Source: an uncultured delta proteobacterium
Lineage (GTDB): Bacteria; Desulfobacterota; Desulfomonilia; UBA1062
NCBI GenBank assembly: GCA_963785235.1
Contig: CAWAUM010000010.1
Span: 84,365 to 148,364, forward strand
Reading direction: 5' to 3'
DNA: 64,000 nucleotides
The translations under genes were made by a program, and so were the position numbers. The notes beneath the pieces were generated by a model. The model did no database searches, was not told the origin of the DNA, and worked only from the letters and a program-made list of their open reading frames with translations. How positions within the stretch are numbered: position 1 is the stretch's first letter; each line of letters starts with the position of its first letter. Of this stretch, positions 15,244-54,671 are shown piece after piece.

Positions 15244-16432
15244 ATGAGAAAAATGTTGTCTGGTATATTCATAATCTGTGTCGTTTTCCTGCTGGCAGGC
15301 TCTGCTGATGCAGCCAGACCCGGGTTCGACGCCAAGGAGATCCGCATCGCCCAGTGGGGTCCTCAGACCGGGCCGGCTGCGCCGTGGGGGTCGGTGGCCA
15401 GGGGAAGCGACCTGATATTCAAGATGGTCAATGATGAAGGAGGCATCCACGGCCGGAAGATCAAGTACTTCATCCGTGACGACCAGTACAACCCGGCCCA
15501 GACCAAGGGGGTAGTCAAGGAACTCGTGGAGCGCGAGGGCATCTTCGCCTTTGTGGGCGGTGTGGGTGCGGCCTGTGGCATGGCAGTAAAAGACTATCTG
15601 GCCCAGAACAAGGTCATCTGGGTAGGGCCGTCCACGGCCATCGAGCGAATATGTGTTCCCGGTGAATCCGTACCTCTTTGCCGTGTACCCTCTCTATGAC
15701 GACGAGGCAAGCATCCTCACCAAGTATGTGGTGGAAAAGATGAAGGCCACGAAGATTGCTTTCTTCTACCAGAACGACGCCTATGGCAAGACCGGGCTCG
15801 ACGGGTGCAAGACCCGCATGGATGCCCTGAAGATGAAGCTTGTGGAGGAGATCTCGGTTGAGCCGGGAGAGAAGGACCTCTCGTCCCAGATGCTCAGGCT
15901 CAAGAACTCCGGCGCCGAGGTGGTCATCTGTGGGTGAATCCCACCAGCGCCGTCATTGCGCTCAAGACCTGTCAGACCATCGGATACAAGCCCAAATGGG
16001 TATCTTCCAACACCCTGTCCGACTTCCCACTTATGCAGAAGATCAGCGGCGGCCTCTGGGAGGGTGTCATCACCGGCGGCTTCGGCATACCGCCCGACCT
16101 CCGATGACACGCGCATCGTCAAATACCGTGAGGCTGCCAAAAAGTATGCTCCCGAGGAACGCTTCGGCACCTTCTACCTGGCGGGCGTCCTGTGGGCCGA
16201 ACCGCTCATCGAGGCACTCAAGAAGACCGGGCCCAAGCTGAGCACCGAGGCCTGCCTGAAGCAGCTCAACTCCATAAAGAATTTCCAGGGCATCGGACCC
16301 AAGATCACATGGTCGCCCCAGGTGCATCAGGGGTCCGACTCGGTCTTTATCCAGCAGTGCGGACCGAACTCCAGCTATATCATCCTCCAGGACTGGATGG
16401 TCAACGACCTGGCCAAGTGGAAGAAGAAATAA
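15244..16432 (+). pseudogene. Liv-type periplasmic substrate-binding protein, upstream paralog, broken by at least 3 frameshifts
   Basis: Fragments 15244..15699, 15653..15937 and 15956..16432 (with a further frame break near 16100) together align with the intact downstream paralog along its full length, at roughly 75% amino-acid identity where alignable. Confidence 0.8.
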
Positions 16433-16523: not shown

Positions 16524-17720
16524 ATGATGATCAAGAGGCACATGTTTATTACCGGAATATGCTTTCTTATCATGCTTCTCCTGCCTGTAACGGGAAGCGC
16601 AGCACGACCAGGTTTTGACGACAAGGAGATCAGGATCGGGCAGTGGGGACCTCAGACAGGTCCTGCAGCACCATGGGGATCCGTGGCCAGGGGCAGCGGC
16701 CTGCTGTTCAATGTGATCAACGAGCAGGGCGGCATACACGGCAGGAAGATCAAGTACTTCATCCGGGATGACCAGTACAACCCGGCCCAGACCAAGGGCG
16801 TGGTCAAGGAACTCGTGGAGCGTGAAGGCGTCTTCGCCTTCGTGGGAGGCGTGGGAGGTGCCTGCGGCCTGGCGGTCATGGACTATCTCAATGAAAAAAA
16901 GGTTATCTGGGTTGGTCCGTCGGCTGCCATTACCGAATTCGTCTTCCCGGTGAAGCCTTACGTGTTTGCCGTGTATCCGCTGTATGAAGACGAGGGGAGC
17001 ATCCTTGCAAAATACGTTGTTGAAAAGCTCAAGGCCAAGAAGATAGGGTTCTTCTACCAGAACGATGCCTATGGCAAGGATGGGCTTGACGGTGCCAAGA
17101 AGAGGCTCGCTACATACAAGATGAGCTTCGTGGAGGAAATCCCCGTGGAGCCCGGCGAGAAAGACCTCTCCTCCCAGATGCTGAAGTTCAAAAACTCCGG
17201 TGCGGAAGTGGTCATGATGTTTGTCAACCCAACGGTGGCCACAATTGCCCTGAAGACCTGCGCCACCGTCGACTTCAAGCCCCAGTGGGTATCCTCCAAC
17301 ACCCTGTCGGACTACGGGCTCATGCTCAAGATCACGGGCGGTCTCTGGGAGGGTGTCATCACCGGCGCCTTCGGCATGACGCCCACAGCTGACCACCCCC
17401 TCATGAACATGTATCGTGAGGCGGGAAAGAAGTATTCACCTGAAGAGCGGTGGGGTACTTTCTATCTCGCAGGCATCGTCTTTGCCGACCCCCTTGTGGA
17501 GGCACTCAAGCGCGTTGGACCGAAGCTGAGTACGGAGGCCTGTGTGAAGGCGCTGAACTCCATCAAGGACTATCAGACCATCGGTCCCAAGGTCAACTGG
17601 TCGCCGCAGATCCACCAGGGCACAGACTCCGTCCAGATCCAGAAATGCGGACCGGGCGGTTCGTACATCCTGCTCCAGGACTGGACGCCCAACGACCTGG
17701 CAACGTGGAAAAAAAAGTAG
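16524..17720 (+). CDS. livK: Liv-type ABC periplasmic substrate-binding protein (intact copy)
   Basis: 398 aa with signal peptide. Type-I periplasmic binding fold family; ribosome-binding site AAAGGAGG. Confidence 0.85.
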   Translation: MMIKRHMFITGICFLIMLLLPVTGSAARPGFDDKEIRIGQWGPQTGPAAPWGSVARGSGLLFNVINEQGGIHGRKIKYFIRDDQYNPAQTKGVVKELVEREGVFAFVGGVGGACGLAVMDYLNEKKVIWVGPSAAITEFVFPVKPYVFAVYPLYEDEGSILAKYVVEKLKAKKIGFFYQNDAYGKDGLDGAKKRLATYKMSFVEEIPVEPGEKDLSSQMLKFKNSGAEVVMMFVNPTVATIALKTCATVDFKPQWVSSNTLSDYGLMLKITGGLWEGVITGAFGMTPTADHPLMNMYREAGKKYSPEERWGTFYLAGIVFADPLVEALKRVGPKLSTEACVKALNSIKDYQTIGPKVNWSPQIHQGTDSVQIQKCGPGGSYILLQDWTPNDLATWKKK

Positions 17721-21218: not shown

Positions 21219-21510
21219 GTGAATCGGGTTAAAAACTGTAATCCCCTTCCGTTTCGTGGAAAGTTTTTTCTCATATTTTCAGCATGTTCTCTGTATTGTA
21301 ACTGATAACCTATTGATTATTCTCATAGCCGGTTATTGCATACTTATTGCTTAAAGGTTATTCACAAGACTGTATGGCATAGTTCACAAAAAACAGGGGA
21401 TGCCATAAATTCATGTCCTCGCACACGGTGTTTGTATACAATGATAAGGAGCTGATAATTAGTCTTTCAATGTACTCCCTGCAATGCATCTGGAGGAAGG
21501 GGAAACGTTC

Positions 21511-22932
21511 ATGAGAAGTAAATGGCTCTCGATAGGCATCTTTCCCTTGCTGTTTTGCCTCTTTTTATCAGGCGCATGCAGCAAGCACCATACAGGCCAC
21601 AAAGTGTCTGCCGAAGAGGCCTTTTCCGCACATATCATCGCACCAGCGGATAATGTGACCGTTACTGAAGGACAGCCGGTTAACTTTGAAGGGACTGCAG
21701 TCAACGGCACAGGGCCTTACACCTATCAATGGACCTTTGACGGAGGTGCATCGGATTCAATAGAGCAGAACCCCGGATTAGTCACCTTTACTATGCGCGG
21801 GACCTATACGATCACCTTGGTCGTCAAAGATTCAAAAAAAGCCACAGCGAGTGAAACAAGGGTTGTAAGCGTGCGTTCCCCCGGGGCAAAGAATCTGCTC
21901 CTCGTAAGCGCCAGCACGAATCATTCCCTTGCGATCAAACCTGACGGGACACTCTGGTCATGGGGATTTAATTTTCATGGCCAACTCGGTGATGGAACCT
22001 GGACAAATAGAACTTCGCCCATCAAGGTAGGAAACGACCAAGACTGGGTTGCGGTAAGCGCCGGTGATGGTTTCTCGCTTGCGCTCAAGTCGGATGGGAC
22101 ACTCTGGGCATGGGGAAGCAGTGCAGCTATCGGAACTGGATCCTTTGGTGACAGCAATATCCCAATGCAGATCGCTTCCACGACGGACTGGGTTGCCATG
22201 AGTGCGGGAGGCGGCTTTTCGCTGGCTCTCAAGACCGACGGGTCTCTCTGGGCATGGGGAAATAATTCTTCCGGTCAGCTCGGTGATGGATCACAGAAAA
22301 GTGAATGGATCCCAGCACCGATCGGGACCGACAAAAATTGGACTTCCGTGAGTGCAGGTATGGATCACAGTGCCGCGCTCAAATCCGACGGTACACTCTG
22401 GGAATGGGGAAGTAAATATAACCCTCCCGCCGGTTACTACCAATGGTTATACGATACCGTACCGGTTCAGGTAGGAACCGATCCGGATTGGCTTGGGGTG
22501 AGTACCAGCGGGGATCATACGCTTGCCATCAAGTCCGACGGATCCCTCTGGTCATGGGGCAACAATGAATTCGGCCAGCTCGGATACAGTAGCTACATCT
22601 CAAGAGATACCCCCGCCCTGGTTATCACCCCCGGCACATGGGTTGCGGTATGTGCCTCTGCTGACTACAGCCTTGCCGTTAAAAACGATGGAACCCTCTG
22701 GGCATGGGGAAATAACTATTATGGTCAGCTCGGAGATGGAACAAACGTTGACAAAAGAATACCTACCCAGGTGGGGTCCGACAATGACTGGGTGATGGCA
22801 CGATCCTTCTACCACCATACCATAGCCTATAAAACAGACGGTTCCATCTGGACCTGGGGCGCTAATTGGGCAGGCCAGCTCGGGAATGGGTCGTACGCTG
22901 ATATGAATGTCCCCGGGAAGATCAACTTCTGA
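21511..22932 (+). CDS. Lipoprotein with PKD domain and about 7 RCC1-like beta-propeller repeats
   Basis: Lipobox LFLSGC; PKD-like segment (YTYQWTFDGG); repeated xDGTLWxWGxNxxGQLGDG RCC1 signature. Confidence 0.75.
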   Translation: MRSKWLSIGIFPLLFCLFLSGACSKHHTGHKVSAEEAFSAHIIAPADNVTVTEGQPVNFEGTAVNGTGPYTYQWTFDGGASDSIEQNPGLVTFTMRGTYTITLVVKDSKKATASETRVVSVRSPGAKNLLLVSASTNHSLAIKPDGTLWSWGFNFHGQLGDGTWTNRTSPIKVGNDQDWVAVSAGDGFSLALKSDGTLWAWGSSAAIGTGSFGDSNIPMQIASTTDWVAMSAGGGFSLALKTDGSLWAWGNNSSGQLGDGSQKSEWIPAPIGTDKNWTSVSAGMDHSAALKSDGTLWEWGSKYNPPAGYYQWLYDTVPVQVGTDPDWLGVSTSGDHTLAIKSDGSLWSWGNNEFGQLGYSSYISRDTPALVITPGTWVAVCASADYSLAVKNDGTLWAWGNNYYGQLGDGTNVDKRIPTQVGSDNDWVMARSFYHHTIAYKTDGSIWTWGANWAGQLGNGSYADMNVPGKINF

Positions 22933-22936
22933 TTGC

Positions 22937-25900
22937 TTATTGCTGATCTAAAATATCCCTGATCTTCTTGGAGAATTCGGCCATGCTGAATGGTTTCTGG
23001 ATAAAGCCTTTGCATCCGTTTTTCATGATTTCCTTTGCCTGACCATCAAGACTGTAGCCGCTTGAAAGCAGCACCTTTACATCGGGGTTGACGCGGCGCA
23101 GGGTGTCGAAGGTTTCTTTCCCGCCGAAATCGGGCATGATAATGTCAAGGATCACAAGATCAATCTTACCCCGGGCCTGTTCATAAATCAGTAGACCTTG
23201 TCTTCCTCCTGATGCGCTCAACACCTTATAGCCGAGACCTTCGAGCATTTTTGAACCGATATCCAGGATCATCTCTTCATCGTCAATGAGGAGTATCGTC
23301 TCACGACCTCTCATGATCTCGCCATTTGTCTTTTGCTCGCCTGAAACATCTTTATCCGAGGCCGGGAGATAGATCATGAAGGATGTGCCGAGGTCCTTTT
23401 CGCTCTCTACATTAACGAATCCGCCGTGATTCTTGATGATACCATACACAGATGCCAAACCCAGGCCGGTTCCGCGGCCACGCTCCTTGGTGGTGAAAAA
23501 CGGCTCGAAGATCCTTATTTTTACAGACTCGTCCATTCCGATACCTGTATCCGTAACAGTCACCTTTACAAATCTGCCGGGCATGATTTCATAAGGACTC
23601 ACCTCAACCTCATCCAGATTGATATTTTCTACCGAGATGAACAGGTCACCGCCGCCCGGCATGGCCTGCCAGGCATTCACGAACAGATTGAGCATTACCT
23701 GTTCCATCTGCCCCCGGTCCACATCAACGGCCCAGAGTCCCTGGGCGATCTTGTTATGGATCCGGATCTCTTTCTTAGTCCGGCCGAACATCTCGGAACT
23801 CTTCTGAATGAATTCTCCAAGATGGGTAGGTTTAACCTCATACTTTCCCCCCCTCGCAAATCCGAGCAGCTGCTTTGTAAGGTCGGAGCCACGCTGTACA
23901 TATTCCTCAACACTCTTGAGGCGATCAAAGAATGGATGCGACTCATCAAAGTGCATGAGTATGAGGGATACATTGCCCAGGATACCCATGAGCAAATTGT
24001 TGAAGTCATGGGCAATACCGCCTGCAAGCGTTCCCACTGCCTCCATCTTCTGTGCACGGGTCAGCTGCTGCTCAAGGTTCTTCTTCTCGGTCATGTCGAT
24101 GAGAAAGCCCCTCAATCCGGCAGGCTTGTCGTCATGGTAGACACAGGTGGTATGCACCAGTGCAGGGAAGGTTGTCCCGTCCTTTCTCCGGGCCACATAT
24201 TCATTCAGACCAATCTTCTCCCCTCGCATGACCCTCTTATAGTTCTCCATCATCCGTTCATGGTCTTCCGGGGCCACCACATCCAGGACACTTATGCCCT
24301 GGTTCATCTCTTCGGTGGTGAACCCGAACCGTTCGAAGGAACTCTGGTTCACAAAGGTTAAGAAACCTTTTTCATTCGTTTCAAACACCGTCTCGGGCAT
24401 GAGGCTGGCCAGATCACGGAATCGCTCCTCGCTCTCGCGCAAAGCCTTTTCGGCATTCTTCCGGTCAGTGATGTCCATGAGTGAGGCGACACTTACCTTG
24501 CTGCCTGGTATGAGGGCTATGCTCAGAAAGATGTCCCTTGACTCACCTGAACGGTTTAAGAATCTGAATTCATAGGATCTGGGGACGGATTCGATCCCCT
24601 CCCGGCGCTCTTCATGGTAACGCTTCATCCTCTCCAGGTCTTCAGGAGAAACGAACGTAGTCCAGCTCATCTTGCCCTCGACCTCTTGGCGCAAGTAGCC
24701 CGAGAGCTTTTCGAAATTGGAGTTTACCAGCAGGACCGTCCTGTCCTCCCCGAGCAGCATTGAGGCATTCCCAGTGTTCTCAAAGATGGTGCGGTACTGC
24801 TCCTCGCTATCCCTGATTGCCTCCTCGATCTGTTTCCTCTCGGTGATGTCGGTCTGCGTCCCGATGATGCGGGCAGGGTTGCCGTCTTCAGACCATTGGA
24901 AGACCTTGCCCCGGTCAAGGACCCACTTGTAACTCCCGTCCTTGCATTTCACCCGGTGCTCACTGGTATAGACCGGCAGCTCTCCGCGCAGATGACGCTC
25001 CAGAATATTGTCCGACTGCTGCCTGTCCTCGGGATGGATCAACCTCGACCAGGCCTTAGGACTGTCGTCGATTTCGTTGTCCGTGTAACCGAGCATCTCC
25101 TTCCAGCGTCTGGAACGGTACACCTTTTTATTTATCAGATCATAGTCCCATACACCATCGCCTGCACCCTCCAGGGCGAATTGCCACCTCGCTTCGCTCT
25201 CCCGGAGTGCCTTCTCGGACCGGTTGCGCTCCGTAATGTCAATCATGGATGATACACTCTCTTTTGTGCCCGGGATCAAGGCGACACTCATGAAAAGATC
25301 CCTTATCTCTCCTTTGCGGTCCTTAAAACGGAACTCATAGGAGTTCGCTGCCGAGCCCGGATCATTGCGGCGCATCACGTGGTATCTCTTCATCCTCTCC
25401 AGGTCTTCGGCCACAACGAAACCGGTCCAGCTCATCTTACCTTCCAGTTCTTCTCCCGAGTATCCCGACATCTTCTCAAAATTTGAGTTGGCAAGGAGGA
25501 TCGTGGTATCTTCGGCTATGATGATGTTCGCCGTTGCAGTGCTCTCGAAGGTTGTCCGGTAGAGCTCTTCGCTTTTCCGTATGACCTCATCGGCCTTCCT
25601 GCGCTCTGTGATGTCCCGGGTGATACCCAGAATACCCGTGGGATTACCGGCTTCATCATACAGGATATTAATCTTCACCTCTGTCCATACCGTGGATCCA
25701 TCTTTGCGGATCATCTCGAGTTCGATGTTTTTCGTCCACGCTTTGCCGTGCATCTGCCCGCCGAGTTCCAGCAAACGTTCCCGAGCAAAGAGATCGGCTA
25801 TTCTCTGGTAGGATTCGGGCGTGAGGGATTGATCTATGGAATGCTTCATGACTTCTTCAGGGGTATATCCCCTGAGCTCCATAACAGAAGGGCTCACATA

Positions 25901-28720
25901 GACATAGTGCAAGTCGGTGTCGAGAACCCAGATAACATCCCGCAGGTTCTCGGCGAGCAGCCGGTAACGGCTCTCGCTCTCCTTGAGGGCCTGCTCGGCC
26001 TGGATCCTTTCCGTGATGTCTCTCCCTACGCCCCTGAACCCGGCAGGCTCACCCGATGTGTCTCGAATCAGCGATACTGACATCTCGATGACCCTTTTTG
26101 ATCCATCCTTCCTGATGAGCTCATGATCGACCAGGGTTTTTGGTTTGCCTATTCTATAAACATCGTTGAAGACCTGGAATAACTTCGTTGAGGTCTCTGA
26201 AGTGGAAATGGACCTGTAGTTCATACCGCAGAGTTCTTCACGGGTATAGCCGAGAACTTTGCTTAAGGAATCATTGAAAAAGGTGAAGTTGCCACTGAGG
26301 TCTGATTCGAGGTATGCCTCTTCCATGCTCTCGAGGATAGATCGGTACTTCTCCTCACTTACACGCAGCGCATCCTCAGCCTGTTTACGGCTGGTGATAT
26401 CCCTTACAACGCCACTGAACCCGATCGGTGCTCCATTGGCATCCCGCCTCAAGGATACAGAAGCGTCGACGTAAATCTTGTGGCCATTCTTTTCATTTAA
26501 TTCCCATTCGACGCTGCTGATAGGCTCCCCATCGAGAAAGACCTTATGGAATGCATTGAAAACCTTCTTGGTATTCTTATCATCGATATACTGGCGATAG
26601 TTAACCCCCATGAGCTCATCATGTGCATAGCCAAGCCGTTGTGCAGGCCTGGGATTGAAAAAAGTGAAGTTGCCCTTGAGGTCCACCTCATAGTATGCCT
26701 CTTCCATGTTGTCGAGGATGCTTCGATAACGCTCCTCGCTTTCCCGAAGGGCCTTCTCGGACCGTTTGCGCACGGTAACATCACGCACCAGCGTATTGAA
26801 CCCTATGGGCTGCCCCGATGCATCTCTCATGAGCCAGACAGACAACTCATTGTCATGAAGAGAGCCGTCCTTGTGGTTGACCTGGTAGTCCACCAGCAAC
26901 TCGGGTTTCCCTGTCTTGAAAACCCTGTTAAAGGACTCGAACATGAGCTTGGCTGTTTCAGGCGGGGCGTATGTGCGATAATTCATCCCGAGCAGTTCTT
27001 CCGGGCTGTATCCGGACATCCTGACGGCTGCATTGTTGAAGAAGGTGAAGTTACCGGCAAAATCCACCTCGAAATATGATTCCTCCATGCTTTCCAGGAT
27101 TCTTCTGTACTTGTCCTCGCTGATACGCAAGGCCTCCTCGGCCTGTTTGCGCTCGGTGATATCGATATGATTGGAAATACTTTCATTGGTCCCGGGTATG
27201 AGGGTAACCAGGGCAAGGATATCCCTGACCTCTCCTGTCCGGGTGATAAACCTGAACTCGTAAGATTCCGGCGCAGAGCCCGGCTTTTCCCGTCGCATTC
27301 TGTGATAGTTTTTCAGCCGTTCAAGGTCATCCTCGGAAATAAAGGATTCCCAGGTCATCTTGCCCTCGATCTCGTGGCGGGAGTAGCCCGAAAGCCCTTC
27401 GAAATTGGAGTTCGCAAGCAGGATTGTCTTGTCCTCTCCTATGATGATGGCGGCGTTGCCCGTATTCTCGAATATGGCCCGGTAGCGCCCCTCACTCTTT
27501 TTCAGGGCATCTTCAACCATTTTCCGCTCGGTCACATCCCTTTCCACGCCGCGAAAACCCTTTGGCTGCCCTGAAGGGTCCAGCAAGAGAGCGGCAGTCA
27601 TCTCATGAACCCGGACAGACCCATCCTTTTGAATTACTTCATAATCAACCGTATATTCAGGGTTTCTGGTTTTATAAATCCGGCTGTATACTTCAAGCAT
27701 CTGTTTTGCCGTCTCAGGGGTCATGTACTTGCGGTAATTCAATCCATGGATTTCATCCTGAGAATATCCCAGTCCTCTGCAGCTGGCCTCGTTATTGAAC
27801 GTGAAGTTGCCCTTGAGATCGAGTTCGAAATACCCTTCTTCGATATTTTCAAGGATTCCCCTGTACCTTTCTTCACTCAGGCGCAAAGCCTCTTCCGCCT
27901 GTCTACGATCATTGATATCCATGCATGACGCCACACTCTCGTTGGTGCCGGGTATCATGGCTATGGTCAGGAAGATGTAACGGAGTTCTCCGTAGCGATT
28001 CTTAAAACGGAACTCATAAGAACCAGGTGCCGATTCAGGGTTTTCCCTGCGCTGTGCATGGTAGCGCCTCATCTTCTCAATGTCTTCATCTGCGATGAAG
28101 ACAGTCCAGCTCATCTTTCCTTCCAGCTCTTCCTTGGAATATCCCGAGAGCCTTTCAAAATTCGAGTTCGCAAGGAGGATCGTTGTATCTTCTCCGATAC
28201 AGATGGATGCGTTACCCGTATTCTCGAAGATGGTGCGATAGCGCTCTGAGCTTTTTTTCAACTGTTCCTGGGCTTTCTTCCATGCAGTTATGTCACGGGC
28301 GATTCCCTGGATGGCATAGGGCTCTCCTGAACGATAAATGACAGAGGCCCTTGACTCCAGCCAGACAAAACTCCCGTCTTTGTGTCTGACCATATATTCT
28401 TCGGATTCCCTCTGTGTCCCTGTCTCCTTCAATTCCTGTATGGTTCTGAACACCTTGGGGATCTGCTCGTCTGCAAGAAGCGTAGTCAATGTGATATTTT
28501 TCAGCTCTTCTCTGGAGTATCCGAGCAGATTGAACCCGGCATTACTGGCATCAAGAAACCTGCCTTCAAAGTCGAGGATATAGACCACGTCAAAAGATCG
28601 CTCAAACAGGGCCTTGTAGCGCTCTTCACTCTCCCTGGCAGCCTCTATTGCCAGGCTGTGTTCCTGCTCAAGGTCCTTGAGCCTCTTTTCCAAGTCCTCA
28701 TAGCTGGGTTTCTCAAACAT
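22937..28720 (-). CDS. Cytoplasmic hybrid sensor histidine kinase with about 14 PAS/PAC domains, HisKA, HATPase_c and a C-terminal REC domain
   Basis: 1927 aa with no predicted TM. HisKA H-box AHDFNNLL, then a G-box/ATPase, then a receiver (LLIDDEEM...[10 protein letters not shown]). Ribosome-binding site GGGAGGAG. Confidence 0.9.
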
Positions 28721-29119: not shown

Positions 29120-30958
29120 TCATTTATTCCACAGGAGACTGTTTAGTCCCGAACTGCGCTGGGTTCGCCTGGCGATCGAAGAAGAGAAGATGTCTTCGAG
29201 GGCCCAGATCTCGATAGCGTCCCTGGCCCTGGTTATGCCCGTATAGACGAGCTCCCTGGTGAGCACAGGAGAGTCGCGCTCCGGTAGTATGAGCAGAACC
29301 CGGTCGAACTCGGACCCCTGGCTCTTGTGGATTGTCATGGCAAAGGCCGTTTCGTGTGCGGGCAGCCTTAAGGGCGAAATCTTCCTGACAGACCCGTCTT
29401 TGTCCATAAAGCAGGCGCGCAGGTCATCCCCCTCGCTCACGATGAGCCCGATGTCGCCGTTCATGAGCCTCAGGGTATAGTCGTTTTCCGTGACAAGCAC
29501 GGGCCTGCCGTGGTAGTGCAGCCTGCCGGGTTCAATGAGGCCCGCGCCCTGCAGGATCTCTTCCACCTTGCGGTTCAGGGCCGCTACACCATAAGGACCC
29601 TCGCGGACAGGGCTCAGGATGCGCAACGTATCGAAGAGGCGGAAGCGTTCATAAATATCCTCTGAGGCGAGAAAACCTCCATACCCCCTGGTAACAATCT
29701 CTTTCAGCGCCCTGTTCAATTCTCCCGGTAAAGGCAGGTCCTGCCAGCAAAGCTCTGCTCTGTGGTCTGAGTGGAGGATCTCAAGGGACCGGCCGATATC
29801 TCCCGAATTGACTGCCTCGCCCAGGGCGAAGATGGCGCTGTCTTTACTGAAACGGAAGGTCCGGGTGAGTTCCACAAGCGAATCCTGCATGCCGCCTTCG
29901 CCGCCTGAGGGCACCGTGCACCCTGCTGTCCTTTTCACAAGTCCGGCAAAGTCAGGCGAATAGGCATGGGAGGCGCCCACATCGCAGATATCCCCGAGCA
30001 CGTAGCCTGCCTGAACGGAAGCGAGCTGGTTCTTGTCGCCAAGCAGGATAAGGCGGGCCGTGTCCTTGAGGGCACGGACCAGGTTTGACATGAGGGCCAG
30101 GTCTGCCATTGACGCCTCGTCTATGGCGATAACATCGGCACTCAACGGATTTGCTGCGCCGTGCCTCGGCTGAGTTGACCCGGGAGAGAAGCCCAGGAGC
30201 CTGTGGATGGTGGTGGCCTCGCACGGGATCATGGCCTTTACCTCAGGTGCGCAGTCCATGAGTTCAAGACTGCGCCGGATGGACTCTTCGATCCTCCGGG
30301 CCGCCTTGCCGGTGGGGGCCGCCAGGGCGATCTTCAGGTGAGGCTCCTGCTCAAGGAGCAGGGCCATTATCCTGCAGACAAGCGTGGTCTTGCCCGTGCC
30401 CGGCCCGCCCGTGATCACGCATAGACCTCTTGAAACGGCAGCCGCAGCCGCGGCTTTGTGCAGGTCATGCCCGTCGGTCCCGTCCGGGGGAAACATTCGC
30501 GAGAGGCCCCTGGTGAATAGGGTCTCGTCAAAAGGCATGACCCGTGCGTTCAAACGCAGCAGAACCTCGGCCAATCTCCGCTCGTTCTCACAGGAGCGGT
30601 GGAGATAAAGCCTGCCCGCCTCGTCAAGGATGAGGGGGCGGTAATCGCCCGGGCCGCCCACGACCGTACAGGTCTTCAGGGCAGATATCCAGGCCTCAGG
30701 TGAAGGCAGTTCCAGTACAGCGGCCCCGAACTCTTTGCCCATCAGCCCTGCCCTGATATCGTTCAGATTCAGGCAGGTGTGCCCTTCCCTGCTGAGCCTG
30801 CTCACAAGGGCGGCAGCAAGGATGAGCTCCTTGCTGCCGGATTCTGAGAGCTGCACCATGAACCGGGCGAAATGCATATCAATGGGCTCGAAATAATCTT
30901 CTGCTGGCATCAGACCCTGTTCAACACTTTTCCTGGAATCAACGGCATCATGCGCCAT
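29120..30958 (-). CDS. recD: Exodeoxyribonuclease V alpha subunit RecD (intact)
   Basis: SF1 helicase motifs GGPGTGKTT...; 612 aa; terminal gene of a recC-recB-recD arrangement. Confidence 0.85.
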   Translation of the reverse strand: MAHDAVDSRKSVEQGLMPAEDYFEPIDMHFARFMVQLSESGSKELILAAALVSRLSREGHTCLNLNDIRAGLMGKEFGAAVLELPSPEAWISALKTCTVVGGPGDYRPLILDEAGRLYLHRSCENERRLAEVLLRLNARVMPFDETLFTRGLSRMFPPDGTDGHDLHKAAAAAAVSRGLCVITGGPGTGKTTLVCRIMALLLEQEPHLKIALAAPTGKAARRIEESIRRSLELMDCAPEVKAMIPCEATTIHRLLGFSPGSTQPRHGAANPLSADVIAIDEASMADLALMSNLVRALKDTARLILLGDKNQLASVQAGYVLGDICDVGASHAYSPDFAGLVKRTAGCTVPSGGEGGMQDSLVELTRTFRFSKDSAIFALGEAVNSGDIGRSLEILHSDHRAELCWQDLPLPGELNRALKEIVTRGYGGFLASEDIYERFRLFDTLRILSPVREGPYGVAALNRKVEEILQGAGLIEPGRLHYHGRPVLVTENDYTLRLMNGDIGLIVSEGDDLRACFMDKDGSVRKISPLRLPAHETAFAMTIHKSQGSEFDRVLLILPERDSPVLTRELVYTGITRARDAIEIWALEDIFSSSIARRTQRSSGLNSLLWNK

Positions 30959-30972
30959 TCGTTTTTTACCCT

Positions 30973-33900
30973 CTACTTGTCCTTGTTCATCAGCACTTCG
31001 CTCAACTTTACCAGGTTCTCTTCATCCGGACGGGCGCGGAAGATGCCGTACTCCGGCCCCCTGCCAGGATCAACACCCCGCAGGTACACGTAGAAGACCC
31101 CTCCGAAGTGCTCGTCATAGTTATATCCCTGCAGCCGCTGTTTCAGGTATTGATCCAGCGCCACGCAGTAGAGGTGATACTGGAGGATGTAGTTGTCCCT
31201 GATCATGGATTTCAGGAGTGCATCCTGGCTGTAGTCCTCCACTGTGTCACCCAGATGGTTGGACTTCCAGTCGATGAGATAGTACTTCCCCTCGTGCATG
31301 AAGACCAGGTCCATGAAGCCCCGAAGGAAACCTTTAACCGGTTCAAAGGTGAAGCGGGGGGTATTTGCCGGCATCCAGAGCCCCCTCTCCCTGTCCCTCT
31401 CCCGCAAGGGGAGAGGGGACCTTCATTGAGGGCATGCAGTGAGTAATGGCTTGCTCCAGGATACCGGGTGTGAGCTGATTCAAAGGGAACAGGAACTCCA
31501 GCTCGGTGAGCCGTTCTGCCTTAGTAACCAGGTTGAGACTTGTCACCCCCAGGTCGACGGTGAGAACCTACGCACCATACCGGTCACGGTCCCGGCCCAG
31601 GTCCTTTCGAAACCATGGCTGTGCGAGCATTTCCTCCACCACGGCCCGGATCGCTTCATTGTCCGCAGTGAATTCGATCTTCTCGAAGACCTCGTGAAGA
31701 AGCGTGCCTGCCCGGGCCCCTTTGGGGAAGGAGAAGATGTCTTTAACCCTCTCCCCTTTTTCTCCTGACCCATTTTTCATACCCTGCCACAGGGTGTCCC
31801 GGTCAGCTGCTTCACTGCCTTTGTGCAGGCCGTGGATGAACGCGGTGTAGCTGGCGATTCCCCAGGTGCGGTCAATGGCTCCTGGGAAGACCCGTGCTGC
31901 AGGTTCTTCCGAAGATAAGGCAGGCCGCGCCGCAGGTTCGGGCCGGCCATGGGGGATGTCCAGGACCCGGGCATGACCCGTTCTTGCGCCAAGGAATTCC
32001 TCCAGGCTACGCCGCAGGTCTGCTGCATCCGCGCCCTTCATGAGATGGGCCATGGCCGATCTCTCGGCCCCCTTCACCCTGCCCCAGGCCACATAGCACC
32101 GGTTCTTTGCCCGGGTGAGAGCCACATAGAAGAGCCTCACGTTCTCGGCCAGGGTCTCTTCCAGGGCCTTCCCCCGATGGCTTTCCTGCTCTGGTGAGCC
32201 CATGTCCAGCACAGCAGTATGGGCATCATCGTGGAACAGCACCCCCTCCCCCTTGTCCGGCTTTGCAGCGCCCCAGGCAAAGGGGCAGAACACCACCGGG
32301 AATTCGAGGCCCTTGCTCTTGTGCACGGTCATGACCCTAACCGCGTCGTCGTCGCTCTCGAGCCTGAGCTGGTACTCGTCGCTGCCGGGCATGCCCGGGT
32401 CCCTGCGCTCGGCAAGCCATTTCCTCAGGCCCTGCATGCCCAGCTTCTCAGGCCGCCTCCGCCTTGCCCAGGAGCTCGGCGATGTGGAGAATATTGGTGA
32501 GCGCCCGCTCGCCCGCAGACCATGCTCAGCAGGCGCGAGCGCACCCCCTGGCCGTCCAGGAGCCTCTTGATCATGGGCGTGAAGCCGGAGCGGGCCCAGA
32601 GCTCGTGCCAGTCCCGGAACTGCTCGATCCAGTTCTCCCATGCCGCTTCGTCAATACTGAGCGCATCCACGGCCGCAGGGTTCAGGGCAAAGATGCGGGT
32701 CATGAGTGCGGTGCGCACGAGCCCCTCGCGATACGGCTCGGCCAGGGCTGCAAGGAGCACCTCCATCTCGAAGGCCTCGCTCGAGAGAAACACGTTCTCG
32801 TCGCTGTAGAGCACGCAAGGGATGCCTGCTGCGTGCAGGCTGTCGCGGACCATGCGCGCCTGGGTGTTGGTGCGTACGAGCACAGCCATGTCCGAGGGCT
32901 TGAGTCCATCGTTACCGAGCTTCACAGCGCCATTGCTTGAGAGGTTCAGGAGCCGGGAGATCTCGAAAGCTACGGCCCTGCACACGGCCCTGCCCGCCTG
33001 CTCCACCGTGAGCTCGCGTGCCTCGCCTGCGTCCAGGTACCAGACCTGCAGCGGCCCTTCATCGAGCCCGGTGAGCGTCTTCCGGTCGGTCTTTGGCGCG
33101 GGCTCGGCCGCATCGAAGCGGATCCAGTCGAAGACAAAGGGATACTCCGCCTGTGCGAACACCGCGTTCACCGCTTCTATCAGGCCGGGATCGCTCCGCC
33201 AGTTGTGGATCAGGGTGTGCTTGTGTGCCTCAACCACGCTGTGGGCGGCCCGGGCATAGGTGAACACGTCCGCGCCCCGGAAGCTGTAGACGGCCTGCTT
33301 GGGGTCGCCGATGAAGAACAGGCATGATCCGGCAAAACACCGCGTGAAGATCTCGTACTGCAAGGGGTCCGTGTCCTGGAACTCGTCGATCAGGGCCGCC
33401 TTGAACCTTCCCGCTACCGCTCCGGCCAGCGCGCCACCACCCCGGGACCGCAGGGCCTGGTGCATCCTCAGGAGCAGGTCGTCGTAGTGCACGAGCCCCA
33501 GCTTCTCCTTGCGCCGCGCCAGCGCCGTATCCAGGATATGCGAAGAACTCGACCTTCAGCGAGGTGATCTCGTCCTCAAAGGCAGCGCTCAATGTATCGC
33601 CTGCCTCCTGCAAAGCCCCGCACAGGGCAAAGACCGGGTGTTCCGGCATGGTGGCGCCCTTTTTCGTGGCCTTCTTAATGGCGGTCGGCGTGAACTTTGC
33701 CAGGCACGAGGCCGCGGGCAGCGCCACGCACCCCATGGCCAGGTAGCGCTCCATGTCCGCCAGGTATCCCGGGACTTTTGGTGACCTTGTGGGTGCTCTG
33801 GTTGATGGTGTCCGTATCGCACATGAGCCGCTCCACCTCGCCCAGCGCGGTAGGCCATGCTGCGGCAAGTGCGGCAAAGGCCTGCCGGTACTCAGCCAGC

Positions 33901-40913: not shown

Positions 40914-41945
40914 TCAAGCCGGCCGATACCCGGTAAATGCATAATATTTGTTGCCCGGTATAAGATCTGTCGCGCAATTGCGTTCAAAGCCAGCTTCTGA
41001 CAACTGCTTCAGCATCTCATCCTTATCTGGAAGCCTCCCCCAGCCCTTGGTCGCTGCATGAATCAGATTCACAAGCTCAAACTCGATACTGCCGTTCCTG
41101 CATCCGGTGGTCAGAAGGATTCGGCCATTGGGCTTGAGAAGTTCCCGCAGATGTCTGAACAGCTCAATGCGCTCTTCGACCGGAAAATAGTATATATTGT
41201 TGTACAAGGTAACTATATCGAACAACCCAGGGTCACGGAAATTTCTCACATCTTCAACCACTATTTTCACGCGGTCTTCCAAACCTTTTGTTTGAACATT
41301 GCTGCGGGCTATTTCTGCAACCTGCGAATCAAGCTCCAATCCGAGCGCATTGAGCCTGTTGTTCTTGTCCGCTGCATACATAACATAACCCGCATGCCCG
41401 CAACCCACTTCAAGCAATCGAGTATGTCCTGATATGGGAAAACTGCGATCGATCAGTTCAAACACAAAGGGCTCAAGGGTTCGACTTGACCGGGCGATGA
41501 GATCACCGTATTCGCTGTGCTGATAGGCAGGGTCCCAGACGAGCCCCTGTTCCAGTTTTCCAGGTGTTTGCAGAATATAGAGATGATGAAGGCCCGCAAC
41601 TTCACGAACCAGGGCGCGTATCGCATCGTTTTCAGGGGCGGCCAGTTTTTTTGCCAGAAAACCCCGCAGAGAGTATCCCGCATCATCCTTTTTCAGCACA
41701 CCCAGGCGGACACCCAGTCCGAGCCAGGCCTCGGTTGCATTGCAGAGAGATGGGTCTTTCGCGAATGCACCGGTGAGGCTGCCAAGCGGAACAGGACCAC
41801 GGGATAACTTTCCAAGAATGACGCTGTCTGCCAATGAAGCAAAGAAACACAGACGGTAAAAAGAGGTAAACAGCATCTTGAACCGGAGCAACAGCAGCAA
41901 TCTTCCGCCATTTATCAATGACGCAACTGTTCGTAAGTTCATCAT
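40914..41945 (-). CDS. Class I SAM-dependent (O-)methyltransferase
   Basis: LLEVGCGHAGY motif I and a downstream acidic motif. Start ATGATG at 41945 with a GGAGGG ribosome-binding site. Confidence 0.7.
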   Translation of the reverse strand: MMNLRTVASLINGGRLLLLLRFKMLFTSFYRLCFFASLADSVILGKLSRGPVPLGSLTGAFAKDPSLCNATEAWLGLGVRLGVLKKDDAGYSLRGFLAKKLAAPENDAIRALVREVAGLHHLYILQTPGKLEQGLVWDPAYQHSEYGDLIARSSRTLEPFVFELIDRSFPISGHTRLLEVGCGHAGYVMYAADKNNRLNALGLELDSQVAEIARSNVQTKGLEDRVKIVVEDVRNFRDPGLFDIVTLYNNIYYFPVEERIELFRHLRELLKPNGRILLTTGCRNGSIEFELVNLIHAATKGWGRLPDKDEMLKQLSEAGFERNCATDLIPGNKYYAFTGYRPA

Positions 41946-42077
41946 CCCTCCTTCATACAATGAACCCCGACCGCTTCTATGTATGCGGGGTTGGAGACAG
42001 TACCGTGCTGATGGACAGGAGCGGGAAGATCCCATTGAGGATTCCCCCGCCCTCATGTCCATACATGTCTTAGCAGC

Positions 42078-42728
42078 TCAGTAGGTCCAACCGGCGGCAA
42101 AGGCGATCAGGTTCATTATGATGGGCACTGAATAGAAAAAGACCAGGAGGCCGATCTTGGCCTTCATGGTCTTTCTCGTGATCACCCATATGGCTGCACA
42201 GAAGAAGTGGAAGTACCCGATGAGGAAGATCAGGGGGATGCCCTTGAGCGAGAGATACCAGTAGGGATACTCCCACACCAGGTGGCCGCCCATGTTCAGC
42301 AGGCACTCCACGAAGACGCAGAATACCGAATAGCCGATGGCCCAGAACCACATCTCCGGGATACCCAGGATCTTCACCTTCTTGTTCTCGGTGAGGGTGT
42401 GGTAGAAGATGATGCCCACGATGGCGAACATGAACATGATCTCGATGTTCCAGCCCACCATGGTGCGCAGGGCCGTATCACCCGGTGTGGTCCAGAATGC
42501 GCTGCGCTGGGTGAAGTGCAGCACCCAGCCGTTCCAGCTCTCGTTGAAGAAATCCACCCCGAAGATGGCGGCACCGGAAAATACCGCATTCCAGTTTCCG
42601 TTCTCCTTGGCCAGTTTGATCTCCTTGGTGTAGATGTAGATAACGATGGCCAGAAGCGGAATGATGTACCACTTGATCATGGTAAGGTCCCTGAGTCCGT
42701 TAAGTGCCTGCAGTGTAGCCTCGGTCAT
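42078..42728 (-). CDS. Polytopic membrane protein of unknown function
   Basis: About 6 TM segments, 216 aa. Same strand as, and between, the TetR regulator and the methyltransferase. Confidence 0.5.
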   Translation of the reverse strand: MTEATLQALNGLRDLTMIKWYIIPLLAIVIYIYTKEIKLAKENGNWNAVFSGAAIFGVDFFNESWNGWVLHFTQRSAFWTTPGDTALRTMVGWNIEIMFMFAIVGIIFYHTLTENKKVKILGIPEMWFWAIGYSVFCVFVECLLNMGGHLVWEYPYWYLSLKGIPLIFLIGYFHFFCAAIWVITRKTMKAKIGLLVFFYSVPIIMNLIAFAAGWTY

Positions 42729-51781: not shown

Positions 51782-52960
51782 ATGGGCGAACAGATAATGA
51801 TGATCCACGGGATGTGGGGAGGACCATGGGTATGGAACAACTACAAACAATTCTTCGAGTCAAAAGGGTATCGCTGCCTCACGCCCGCACTGCGGTTCCA
51901 TGATAAGGAATCAACGGATTTCTCGTATGACCAATTGGGTGAAACGAGCCTGCTGGATTATGCCAAAGACCTTGAGCATGAGATATGTCAGCTCCATGAG
52001 AAACCAATACTCATGGGGCACTCCATGGGCGGCCTTCTCGCCCAGATACTCGGGAGCCGCGGCCTGGCAAAGGCCCTTGTGCTCCTGACGCCTGCATCAC
52101 CGAGAGGGATCATGGCCCTGAAGCTATCCGTGATCAGGAGCTTCTGGAGCACCCTCACAAAACCGGGCTTCTGGAAAAAGCCCATGCTGCAGACCTTTGA
52201 TGAGGCGGTCTACTCCATGCTGCAGATGATGCCTGGTGAAGATCGTAAAGCACTGTACGATAAATTCGTTCCGGAATCAGGCCGGGCAGGCTTTGAGATC
52301 GGGTTCTGGCTGCTGGATGGAAATCGCGCCACTGAGGTCAATGAGTCCAGAGTCACCTGCCCCTGTCTGATAATCTCAGGGAAACTCGACAAGATTACCC
52401 CACCTTCGGTTGTCCGGAGCATGGCACACAAATACCGGACAGTATCCACGCTCAAGGAATTTACACACCATGCCCACTGGGTTCATGACGAACCAGGCTG
52501 GATCGAGATCGCCGAGTACTGCGCTGAATGGCTGGATCAGGTCCTCGTTACCATGTCCGAAAGACCCCTGCCAATCGCAATACCTCACGCAAGACCGGCG
52601 GACAGGGTAAAAAAGGCCGTATCGGGCTACACTCAGAAATGGAAACACACGAAGGGAGTGGAACACCGCACAGGCAGGAGGACAGAGATGAACCTGGTGG
52701 TCGATGCGAGCATCCCCTGCAGCGGTAATGCCCAGTACTATGAGCTCGGATATACCATGAATATCTGCCAAGGCGGGATATACCTGGATACTGTCGCACC
52801 CCTGGAAGAAGGCATGTATGTGAATGCGAACCTGCATACCGGGAAGGCAGAGAAACCCCTGTGGGTACAGGGCCGTGTGGTGAGAGCTGCAGGCAATGGC
52901 ATGGCTATGGCATTTTCCCATGTGGAGCCCGAGAGATTGAACCGGCTACTGCTCATATAG
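51782..52960 (+). CDS. Alpha/beta-hydrolase fused to a C-terminal PilZ-like domain
   Basis: GHSMGG nucleophile elbow in the N-terminal ~260 aa. The C-terminal ~110 aa carry RxxxR (RTGRR) and a D/NxSxxG-like motif (NICQGG). Confidence 0.6.
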   Translation: MGEQIMMIHGMWGGPWVWNNYKQFFESKGYRCLTPALRFHDKESTDFSYDQLGETSLLDYAKDLEHEICQLHEKPILMGHSMGGLLAQILGSRGLAKALVLLTPASPRGIMALKLSVIRSFWSTLTKPGFWKKPMLQTFDEAVYSMLQMMPGEDRKALYDKFVPESGRAGFEIGFWLLDGNRATEVNESRVTCPCLIISGKLDKITPPSVVRSMAHKYRTVSTLKEFTHHAHWVHDEPGWIEIAEYCAEWLDQVLVTMSERPLPIAIPHARPADRVKKAVSGYTQKWKHTKGVEHRTGRRTEMNLVVDASIPCSGNAQYYELGYTMNICQGGIYLDTVAPLEEGMYVNANLHTGKAEKPLWVQGRVVRAAGNGMAMAFSHVEPERLNRLLLI

Positions 52961-53071
52961 CTCAAGGGTGAAAGGGGACATCTTCTTCGTGTAGAAATCC
53001 AATCTGCACCCTTTTCGGACTGAACAACCTCTTCGGTGGTCTCATGCAGGCATTCTTTTTTGTAGTTCCTG

Positions 53072-53407
53072 TTATTTCACCATCACGAGCAGCATCTTGA
53101 ACCTGGATACGGCCTTCAGTGCATGCGGCTTATGGGCCGGCATGATTATCATCTCTCCTGCCTGGACTGTATGCGGTGTGCCTTCAATAGCGACCTCGGC
53201 CGTGCCTTCCAGGACATGAACCAGGGCGTCGAAGGGTGCAGTATGCTCACTGAGGCCTTCACCCTCGTCAAAGGCAAAGACCGTCACCGTGCCCGCAGCT
53301 TTCTTGATGATCTCCCTGCTCACAATGGATTGGACCTGGTATGCGGCAAGGTCTTTCAGGTTCATGGCCTTTGCCAGGAGCTCTTTCTTCACACCCTGTT
53401 CTTCCAT
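53072..53407 (-). CDS. Cupin-domain protein
   Basis: Two-His cupin motif (HTAPFDALVHVLEG ... PHAL). Confidence 0.7.
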   Translation of the reverse strand: MEEQGVKKELLAKAMNLKDLAAYQVQSIVSREIIKKAAGTVTVFAFDEGEGLSEHTAPFDALVHVLEGTAEVAIEGTPHTVQAGEMIIMPAHKPHALKAVSRFKMLLVMVK

Positions 53408-53428
53408 GTCGTTTCATCCTTTCTTGGT

Positions 53429-53965
53429 TCAATCTAGAGAAGCTGCCAGTAATGCTTCCAGATCCGCATGATCACCTGCAAACATGTTGCGGTGCTGGAA
53501 AATGAGTTCATTGCCGGGGCCCAGGACAAAGACTCCTCCCTGCTGCCAGAGATCGCCGTCCGTGCGTCCCTGTCGGAAACCATTTTTCATGGCCCGGATG
53601 CCTTGGATCAAGGATGCAGGGCCCAGTGTTTTCAAGAGACCGCGTTGAAGCCTGAAGGCCCTGTACGCACTGAGGTCCTGGTTCACATACATCTCGCCGG
53701 TAAAATGGAGCTTTTTGACGAAATGCACCGCACCACCGGGACTGCCGCTCCCGATGGCTACCAATGCTATTCCGGCCCCCTCCAGTTTTCCCTTGATACC
53801 CATGAGGGCAGCAGCCTGCTGCCGTGCAAACATTCAGCCGAAATGGCGGAGGAAGGCAAGCACGATGCGCCTCTCCTCCCACAGTGACTCGAGGGCTACT
53901 TCCCTTTCCTTAAGAGACTGCACCGTTACACCTGCGACAAGTGGCTTCAGTTCCTCATACGTCAT
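53429..53965 (-). CDS. Peroxiredoxin-like 2 (AhpC/TSA-like, PRXL2 family) candidate selenoprotein; in-frame TGA at 53834..53836 read as Sec
   Basis: A 43-codon ORF (MTYEELKPLVAGVTVQSLKEREVALESLWEERRIVLAFLRHFG) and the 134-codon ORF (MFARQQAAAL...) are in the same frame, separated only by TGA. The joined 178-aa product matches the PRXL2 family end to end, with TGA at the first Cys of CxxC. Strong ribosome-binding site AGGAGGGG before ATG 53965. A hairpin starts 11 nt 3' of the UGA. Confidence 0.7.
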
Positions 53966-54155
53966 TTACCCCTCCTGTATCCCGTATATCTTATAAAGTG
54001 GATGTCTCCTTTTGCAAGCCACACCTGGCAATGCTCTTTAAATAAATGACACCGAAGTTGCTTTTTGCATATATCGCATTATTAATAAAGAATCCCAAAA
54101 TATAATTCCTTGAAACTGCTCCTGAGACCAAGACCCAACCTGAGGAGGACAAAAG

Positions 54156-54671
54156 ATGAGAACAGTATGCCTGTCCCTAGCTTTGGCAATACTCATGACA
54201 GCCCAGACTCAGATTGTCTATTCCAGACCCTTGATGAGGTCAGCCAGCACAGCAGAGCTGATCATCTACCTGCAGCCGAATCTTGACCCGGAAATTGCCG
54301 CTATCCATGCAAAGTACATTGATAAATTTGCAAGCAAATGGAAGGTGGACCGGCTGAAGGTGATCAGCATAACCCACCAGGAATCGAAGTTCAGGCCCGA
54401 TGCGCAAAGTTCCGTAGGCTGCATAGGCGCAATGCAGGTGAATCCGAGGGCTCACCAGGACAAATTGAAAAGGAGGGGAATTACCTGGCGTGACCTGTAT
54501 TTCTTAAGGAACAACTATGATATCGGCTCGGAAATATTGCATGACTGCCTGAAGTCATCACGAACCTTTGATGAGGCCCTGAAAAAATATAGCGGTGGGA
54601 GCAGGAAATACACAAAAGAGGTGAAAAAGATCTATGGAATGCTCTATCGATGCGGGCTCATGACAAGCTGA
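54156..54671 (+). CDS. Secreted lytic transglycosylase (SLT domain)
   Basis: ESxFxPDAQSSVGCIGAMQV motif; signal peptide. Confidence 0.8.
   Translation: MRTVCLSLALAILMTAQTQIVYSRPLMRSASTAELIIYLQPNLDPEIAAIHAKYIDKFASKWKVDRLKVISITHQESKFRPDAQSSVGCIGAMQVNPRAHQDKLKRRGITWRDLYFLRNNYDIGSEILHDCLKSSRTFDEALKKYSGGSRKYTKEVKKIYGMLYRCGLMTS

Follow-up and report, generated by a model that had tools for sequence, protein, structure and literature searches.

The question raised by this locus is whether a TGA codon lying between two adjoining open reading frames (ORFs) ends a short gene or is read as an amino acid within a longer one. The window, by which we mean the whole stretch of 64,000 nucleotides (nt) analysed, belongs to an uncultured delta proteobacterium of the Desulfobacterota lineage UBA1062 (contig CAWAUM010000010.1, assembly GCA_963785235.1). 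On its minus strand 43 sense codons (MTYEELKPLVAGVTVQSLKEREVALESLWEERRIVLAFLRHFG, MTYEEL...LRHFG) run into TGA at 53836..53834 and are followed by 134 in-frame codons (MFARQQAAAL...LLAASLD) up to a stop at 53431..53429. Approximately half of the window's long ORFs terminate with TGA, which is thus an ordinary stop codon here. An earlier note made from the sequence alone had read this TGA as selenocysteine (Sec) in a peroxiredoxin-like gene, and its coordinates for the ATG, TGA, frame, stop and a downstream hairpin were all reproduced from the sequence. We conclude that the two ORFs at 53965..53429 are very probably a single gene, which encodes a 178-residue selenoprotein of the PF13911 family (AhpC-TSA_2, also PRX-like2 or PRXL2) and is decoded in the manner proposed below.

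The complete coding sequence occupies 53429..53965 of the minus strand and translates to 178 residues (Met1 to Asp178, with Sec at residue 44) and a stop codon, the product being of the PF13911/PRXL2 type with a thioredoxin fold. The true start, identified by sequence and by conservation in orthologs, is the ATG at 53963..53965, with a Shine-Dalgarno sequence (AGGAGGGG, 53969..53976) 3 nt 5' of it. The in-frame UGA that specifies Sec44 (53834..53836) falls at the position of the first Cys of a CxxC motif, at the N-terminus of helix alpha1. A bacterial selenocysteine insertion sequence (SECIS) upper stem-loop, GGCAGCA-GGC-UGCUGCC, lies at 53807..53823, inside codons Arg48 to Ala53, and the genuine stop of the gene is the TGA at 53429..53431.

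Relatives of the gene were collected at two levels: a homolog search at the protein level, covering 5.8 billion clusters, gave 115 relatives, and a nucleotide scan of one genome per species yielded 80 loci (L001–L080; counts of 81 include the window). The window gene and L001–L036, all from Desulfobacterota, make up the 37 genes of clade A, while the TGA set of clade B comprises the 36 TGA-bearing loci among L037–L079, which carry the motif UxxC and derive from Myxococcota, Kofleriaceae, Binatia and others. The orthologous codon is TGA in 73 of the 81 genes, TGC in seven and TGT in one. Counting other species only, 72 of 80 genomes have TGA, one of them from the isolate Desulfatitalea alkaliphila, and therefore a single-base error cannot explain the TGA of the window.

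The reading frame upstream of the TGA bears the marks of coding sequence. Ratios of nonsynonymous to synonymous substitution rates (dN/dS) in pairwise comparisons with the window gene are 0.19–0.30 upstream of the TGA and 0.12–0.20 downstream; against the nearest relative, L001, they are 0.19 and 0.17 respectively, showing no relaxation. These ratios show that purifying selection acts on the 43 codons before the TGA. Six residues close to the TGA (Trp-15, Phe-6, Arg-4, His-3, Phe-2 and Gly-1) are kept in 36–37 of the 37 clade A genes, each through several synonymous codons. The ATG 43 codons 5' of the TGA is likewise conserved, with an AGGAGG-like motif before it in most clade A orthologs. The codon after the TGA has no Shine-Dalgarno sequence before it in any of the 37 clade A genes; it is ATG in 31 of the 73 TGA forms and a non-ATG codon (CTN, ATC, ATT or ATA) in the other 42.

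Protein databases give a different picture of the family, as the earlier note anticipated when it suggested that an ORF caller would split the gene. The nearest cluster relatives (approximately 85, at 53–97% identity) align with no more than 75% of the query and, but for two that are extended at the C-terminus, are 105–149 residues long, so that close homologs are nearly all N-terminally truncated proteins. Short RefSeq entries of this kind include a Desulfatitalea 'AhpC/TSA family protein' of 135 residues (P0065) and a Desulfatibacillum alkenivorans 'peroxiredoxin-like family protein' of 129 residues (P0085). No full-length clade A protein was found in the 5.8 billion clusters, full-length homologs occurring only among distant relatives (35–44% identity, 173–192 residues), which have RHFGCMFCRE or RHFGCIHCRE at the site. 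Both RefSeq entries come from cultured isolates and begin no earlier than the Sec codon; in L021, the locus corresponding to P0065, RHYG-TGA-MFARQQV is intact.

The hairpin downstream of the UGA can be compared with the bacterial SECIS (bSECIS) model as quoted in PMC13188914, which calls for an upper stem of 4–16 bp with a loop of 3–9 nt, a G in the first two loop positions, a distance of 16–37 nt from UGA to loop and a minimum free energy (MFE) of at most -7.5 kcal/mol. The window hairpin, which begins 10 nt past the UGA, can be drawn as 7 bp closing a GGC loop or as 6 bp closing AGGCU and has a folding energy of -11.6 kcal/mol; GG opens the loop, which lies 17 nt from the UGA. It agrees with all four published bSECIS criteria.

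Comparison between genomes adds to this. Across 36 distinct clade A sequences the six core pairs of the stem are formed in 96.3% of cells, with compensatory changes from GC to UA in seven sequences (GUCAGC...GCUGAC, at the cost of Ala to Asp) and from AU to GC in one, and none of 500 shuffles reached the observed pairing or covariation score. Codon usage tells more than pairing does. Synonymous entropy at codons +5 to +9 (Gln-Gln-Ala-Ala-Ala) is 0, 0, 0.74, 0.31 and 0.22 bit, compared to approximately 1.2–2.0 bits for Ala and 0.6–1.0 bit for Gln elsewhere in the gene; the loss of synonymous variation coincides exactly with the stem, indicating that selection acts on the RNA. In 32 of the 36 TGA loci of clade B we found another hairpin (GUCGCGC-AGUU-GCGCGAC or GUGGUGC-AGUU-GCACCAC) at nt +22 to +39 after the TGA. 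This hairpin, with its AGUU loop, lies approximately 8 nt further from the UGA than the clade A hairpin; it is 97.3% paired, with compensatory changes at four pairs in 33 cells and no competing register. The remaining four loci (L057, L062, L076 and L077, all Myxococcota) have a hairpin at the clade A position. One or other hairpin is present in register (at least 5/6 or 6/7 pairs) in all 73 TGA forms and in none of the eight Cys-codon forms, which reach at most 4/6 and 4/7 pairs. These alignments suggest that the position of the SECIS has shifted during the evolution of a single protein family. The identification of 53807..53823 as a SECIS by the earlier note is supported by the bSECIS criteria, by covariation and by the suppression of synonymous change, and its broader proposal of a selenoprotein gene by these together with TGA at 73 of 81 sites, the dN/dS ratios and the conserved start. 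Many clade A genes, among them L004–L010 and L034, also have a lower stem (AUGUUC...GAACAU, nt +4 to +41) that begins right after the UGA and encloses the SECIS; the version of this lower stem in the window is weak and rich in G-U pairs.

The fused product matches Pfam PF13911 with an E-value of 7.8e-21 (75 bits against a gathering cutoff of 27), the match spanning only residues 59–160, i.e. downstream of the active site. Its sole significant match by HMMER among PDB sequences is human PRXL2B, prostamide/prostaglandin F synthase (9us9, E=6.5e-17, residues 18–173), at approximately 25% identity. This reproduces the alignment given in the earlier note. Cys44 of PRXL2B (...RRFGCVVCR...) falls on the TGA of ...LRHFG[TGA]MFAR..., and the full-length Cys homologs agree with it in placing the TGA on the first Cys of CxxC, where the note had put it. 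An AlphaFold model built from alignment A1 has a mean predicted local distance difference test score (pLDDT) of 90.4 and a predicted template modelling score (pTM) of 0.88. In this model residues 14–17 and 22–24 form a hairpin, strand 34–39 feeds the active-site turn, and residue 44 sits between that strand and helix 46–63, the classical position of the nucleophilic Cys in a thioredoxin fold. Foldseek placed 9usa (template modelling (TM) scores 0.79/0.85) and 9us9 at the top, followed by PrxQ/BCP and ResA-type structures, the PrxQ/BCP structures at only 10–14% identity. The Pfam match and the model together point to a PF13911 protein with a PRXL2B-like thioredoxin fold and its redox residue at the N-terminus of helix alpha1. 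Since residues 1–43 supply the beta-hairpin and strand 34–39, a 134-residue product begun at the downstream Met would miss an integral part of the predicted fold, namely strand 34–39, as well as the catalytic residue.

We propose that translation begins at the ATG at 53965, behind its Shine-Dalgarno sequence, and that the UGA at codon 44 would be decoded as Sec under the direction of the SECIS within the coding sequence (53823..53807); both steps are strongly supported by the comparisons above. In characterised bacteria, conserved G residues of the SECIS loop are bound by SelB carrying Sec-tRNA(Sec), and the apical loop here (GGC or AGGCU) displays these conserved G residues; SelB would bind the hairpin and bring Sec to the UGA. 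In the structure model Sec44 stands at the N-terminus of helix alpha1, where PRXL2B and thioredoxins have the nucleophilic first Cys of CxxC. The motif is U-M-F-A and there is no Cys anywhere in the protein, so that it has neither a CxxC nor a UxxC pair and the dithiol cycle of PRXL2B is impossible for it. A reductase with a single selenol is most likely, in which Sec would attack an oxidised substrate (a peroxide, endoperoxide or disulfide) and the resulting selenenic acid or selenenylsulfide would be resolved by an external thiol partner such as thioredoxin. Such a cycle would resemble those of glutathione peroxidase or the 1-Cys peroxiredoxins.

Other explanations of the TGA can be weighed against this evidence. 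It might have arisen in a gene of the Cys type by nonsense mutation or through faulty sequencing or assembly, which would make the locus a pseudogene or an artefact. The window does contain frameshifted-looking genes (at 15653..16432 and 31571..33492), but the same TGA recurs in the 72 other species, an isolate among them, both halves are under purifying selection, and each TGA, but none of the Cys codons, comes with a covarying hairpin, by which this explanation is effectively refuted and its probability minute. Slightly less remote, though still highly improbable, is the arrangement that gene callers annotate, with a 43-residue peptide and an independent 134-residue protein translated from the ATG at 53833. 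An ATG directly follows the TGA in the window, as in the 31 TGA forms mentioned above, and databases hold approximately 85 short predicted proteins (122–139 residues) of just this kind. Against it stand the lack of a Shine-Dalgarno sequence before the downstream ATG throughout clade A and the replacement of that ATG by CTN, ATC, ATT or ATA in most TGA forms. In addition, homology to full-length Cys proteins extends through the 43 codons before the TGA, which match the N-termini of those proteins and form strand 34–39 in the model, and the short product would be without its active-site residue.

It is also conceivable that UGA is read as a standard amino acid, through an alternative code (Trp or Gly) or by near-cognate read-through. 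Reassigned UGA exists in some bacteria, and nothing more specific favours the idea; TGA serves as the stop of approximately half of the window's long ORFs, no other gene there is convincingly interrupted by one, the homologous residue is Cys (Sec and Cys being the hallmark pair) and the SECIS-type hairpin is specific to TGA forms. We consider such decoding a negligible prospect. Taken together, the conserved TGA, frame and start and the use of TGA as a normal stop exclude error, nonsense mutation, two separate genes and an alternative code for practical purposes. Somewhat more room is left for a relic, in which the source organism has lost its Sec machinery, UGA now terminates and the gene is decaying, since no such machinery was found within the 64-kb window. 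We still regard this as quite unlikely, as both halves are intact, the hairpin is perfect and the dN/dS ratios relative to L001 (0.19 upstream, 0.17 downstream) reveal no relaxation. Moreover, loss of the Sec trait usually comes with conversion of UGA to a Cys codon or with loss of the gene.

Several observations nevertheless weigh against the interpretation as a selenoprotein, or against parts of it. The window hairpin has a z-score of only -1.86 for the 22-nt piece, with 11 of 200 shuffles folding as well, and in contexts of 37–71 nt it is no more stable than shuffled sequence (z approximately -0.3). With so marginal a folding energy the single sequence is not proof of an RNA element, and its significance comes from genome comparison only; single-sequence folding statistics are uninformative in GC-rich coding sequence. 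In clade A a slipped register (slide -3) also pairs in 90% of cells, owing to a CAG/CUG repeat. The general MFE downstream of the codon fails to separate TGA from Cys forms (p=0.11), and it is the register-specific hairpins alone that do so. No selA, selB, selD or tRNA-Sec was found in the 64-kb window by tRNA and Rfam scans and by Pfam searches of 20 large ORFs, and the ability of this organism to decode Sec is therefore inferred from its lineage, from the intact gene and SECIS and from the unrelaxed selection. At least two genes in the window are frameshifted, which indicates imperfect assembly quality. There is no conserved gene neighbourhood across the loci of the family that might hint at a substrate, and the chemistry, substrate and reductant that we propose are inferences.

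Within the family, the clade to which the window gene belongs has features of its own. The earlier note had called the replacement of the second Cys by Ala (UxxA) unusual; it is in fact the majority state of this Desulfobacterota clade, found in 33 of the 37 genes, the others being two UxxT, one UxxS and one UxxC, and clade A proteins are mostly free of Cys altogether. In a rough neighbour-joining tree the UxxS member (L020) nests within the clade of the window gene. The eight Cys-codon forms (L038, L045, L055, L060, L061, L063, L074 and L080), all without either hairpin, sit at approximately five separate places in clade B in the same tree. This scatter suggests repeated interconversion of Sec and Cys in clade B, as far as can be judged from so rough a phylogeny. 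It may further be that clade A is a functionally distinct, single-selenol branch of PRXL2/SelL-related proteins, which lost the resolving Cys after the gain of Sec, runs a cycle like that of glutathione peroxidase with an external reductant, and has its SECIS shifted relative to the UxxC sister clade; we consider the chances of this to be about even.

The window gene most probably belongs to a known selenoprotein family rather than to a novel class. An 'AhpC/TSA family protein' selenoprotein (pfam13911 AhpC-TSA_2/cd02970, with the motif UxxS) is tabulated in reviews (PMC9312934, PMC13188914). It was predicted in deltaproteobacterial symbionts of Olavius algarvensis, for which the reviews credit PMC1976440, although the main text of that paper (Zhang & Gladyshev 2007) does not name the AhpC/TSA family explicitly. 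The preprint of Haft & Gwadz does not mention the PF13911 selenoprotein family of the window gene. The catalogued family and clade A share the PF13911 domain, the same group (Desulfobacterota), Sec in place of the first Cys of the former CxxC, and a small residue in place of the second. The names that NCBI gives to truncated clade A proteins ('AhpC/TSA family protein', 'peroxiredoxin-like family protein') are also the same, and the difference is that clade A is mostly UxxA (33 of 37), with UxxS in a single member. The two are probably the same family, judged by domain, taxon, Sec position and names; published representatives of the catalogued family are CAB1081847.1 and MDX2448127.1.

A single NCBIfam model matches the window protein, NF040769 ('SelL-related redox protein'), over model positions 6–172 of 173 with E=7e-31. 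The scores of the window protein (107.2 bits) and of the clade A protein L018 (105.4 bits) are below the curated cutoff of 120 bits, whereas clade B proteins (UxxC) and the closest CxxC forms score 128–142 bits, above it. By the NCBI threshold and on sequence scores, the window protein is best described as belonging to a sister subfamily of NF040769 and not as a member. The RHFG-U/C and GDxWQQGG motifs are common to it and to NF040769, and clade A differs from clade B in having no second Cys and a SECIS approximately 8 nt closer to the UGA.

SelL itself has the motif UxxU and occurs in fish, invertebrates and marine bacteria, the bacterial forms reportedly having a SECIS inside the coding sequence. 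It has been described as 'a Prx-like protein', and no kind of selenoprotein is commoner in bacteria than the Prx-like thiol oxidoreductases (PMC2398784). Compared by description, SelL and the window protein are both Prx-like proteins of the thioredoxin fold with Sec in a motif equivalent to CxxC, and the NCBIfam name asserts a relationship. However, SelL contains two Sec residues (UxxU, forming a diselenide) served by a single SECIS, while the window gene has one TGA and Ala at +3, and thus lacks the defining pair of SelL.

Human PRXL2B (FAM213B) is the nearest solved structure both by sequence and by fold (E-value and TM scores given above). It differs from the window protein in having CxxC; it is thioredoxin-dependent and reduces the endoperoxide of prostaglandin H2, a substrate not expected in a relative of sulfate reducers. 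The PRXL2/SelU family includes the SelU1 selenoproteins of fish and birds, with Cys in the mammalian forms (PMC3316567). In the eukaryotic genes the SECIS lies in the 3' untranslated region, whereas that of the window gene is inside the coding sequence. The Sec of SelU1 presumably occupies the same site as the UGA of the window gene. The shared family indicates that exchange between Sec and Cys at the PRXL2 active site has occurred in both eukaryotes and bacteria. Glutathione peroxidase and the 1-Cys peroxiredoxins, which also have one redox-active chalcogen residue regenerated by an external thiol, belong to different families with different active-site motifs and are mechanistic analogues only.

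The surroundings of the gene add little on its function. A gene for a cupin protein of 111 residues (53072..53407, minus strand; Pfam Cupin_2, 2.5e-11) begins 21 nt past the selenoprotein stop, and the two are probably co-transcribed in the lineage of the window. Among the related loci, L001 and L003, the closest relatives, are the only ones in which the cupin gene adjoins the selenoprotein gene. Genes for cupin, SLT and Hcp proteins occur as neighbours in the nearest relatives alone, the largest cluster of neighbours across loci consisting of generic PAS/histidine-kinase proteins. No promoter-like site was found in 52900..54300, and terminator-like sites in the same interval are no more numerous than in shuffled sequence. 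The Rfam and tRNA scans of the window returned no tRNA and no catalogued RNA family, and no tRNA-Sec was found in 36 related loci. Thermodesulfobacteriota are among the bacteria richest in selenoproteins (PMC13188914).

Among 24 candidates from a codon-bias screen, none was convincing as a second TGA-interrupted selenoprotein in the window, and most overlap longer ORFs on the opposite strand. The best of them, a possible read-through gene at 40914..42728 (minus strand), was rejected, as it consists of a multi-pass membrane protein of 216 residues ending at TGA 42080, followed by a separate in-frame ORF resembling S-adenosylmethionine (SAM) methyltransferases. The locus at 15653..16432 (plus strand) was likewise rejected as a selenoprotein, being a frameshifted gene of the LivK/Peripla_BP_6 type. 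Here the TGA at 15935 is followed by approximately 55 out-of-frame-looking residues rich in Pro, Ser and Arg, and then by a good LivK-like C-terminus; the locus is a frameshifted pseudogene or an assembly indel, and an intact LivK-like paralog is present at 16524..17720. A UvrD/RecB-like helicase at 31571..33492 (minus strand) is divided between the ORFs 32428..33492 and 31571..32641, which overlap and differ in frame, and adjoins a RecD gene (29123..30958). This split is probably a frameshift, and hints at imperfect assembly or gene decay. Elsewhere in the window a giant ORF of 1927 residues (22937..28720, minus strand) adjoins a gene for an RCC1-repeat/PKD-domain protein (21484..22932, plus strand).

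These results are relevant to selenoprotein specialists and overturn nothing. The dominance of UxxA, the existence of a Cys-free clade, the two SECIS positions and the scattered Cys forms in clade B may not have been described before. An annotation correction applies to the window gene and to the approximately 85 closest database clusters, which are truncated at the Sec codon at their N-termini and are therefore without the active-site residue. A simple rule for re-annotation can be drawn from the RHFG-U motif together with the two register-specific hairpins, and an NCBIfam model or cutoff that covered clade A would correct the truncations automatically. For the family itself, clade A represents a natural experiment on the benefit of Sec, in which a scaffold of the PRXL2 type keeps Sec while dropping the resolving Cys and its other Cys residues.

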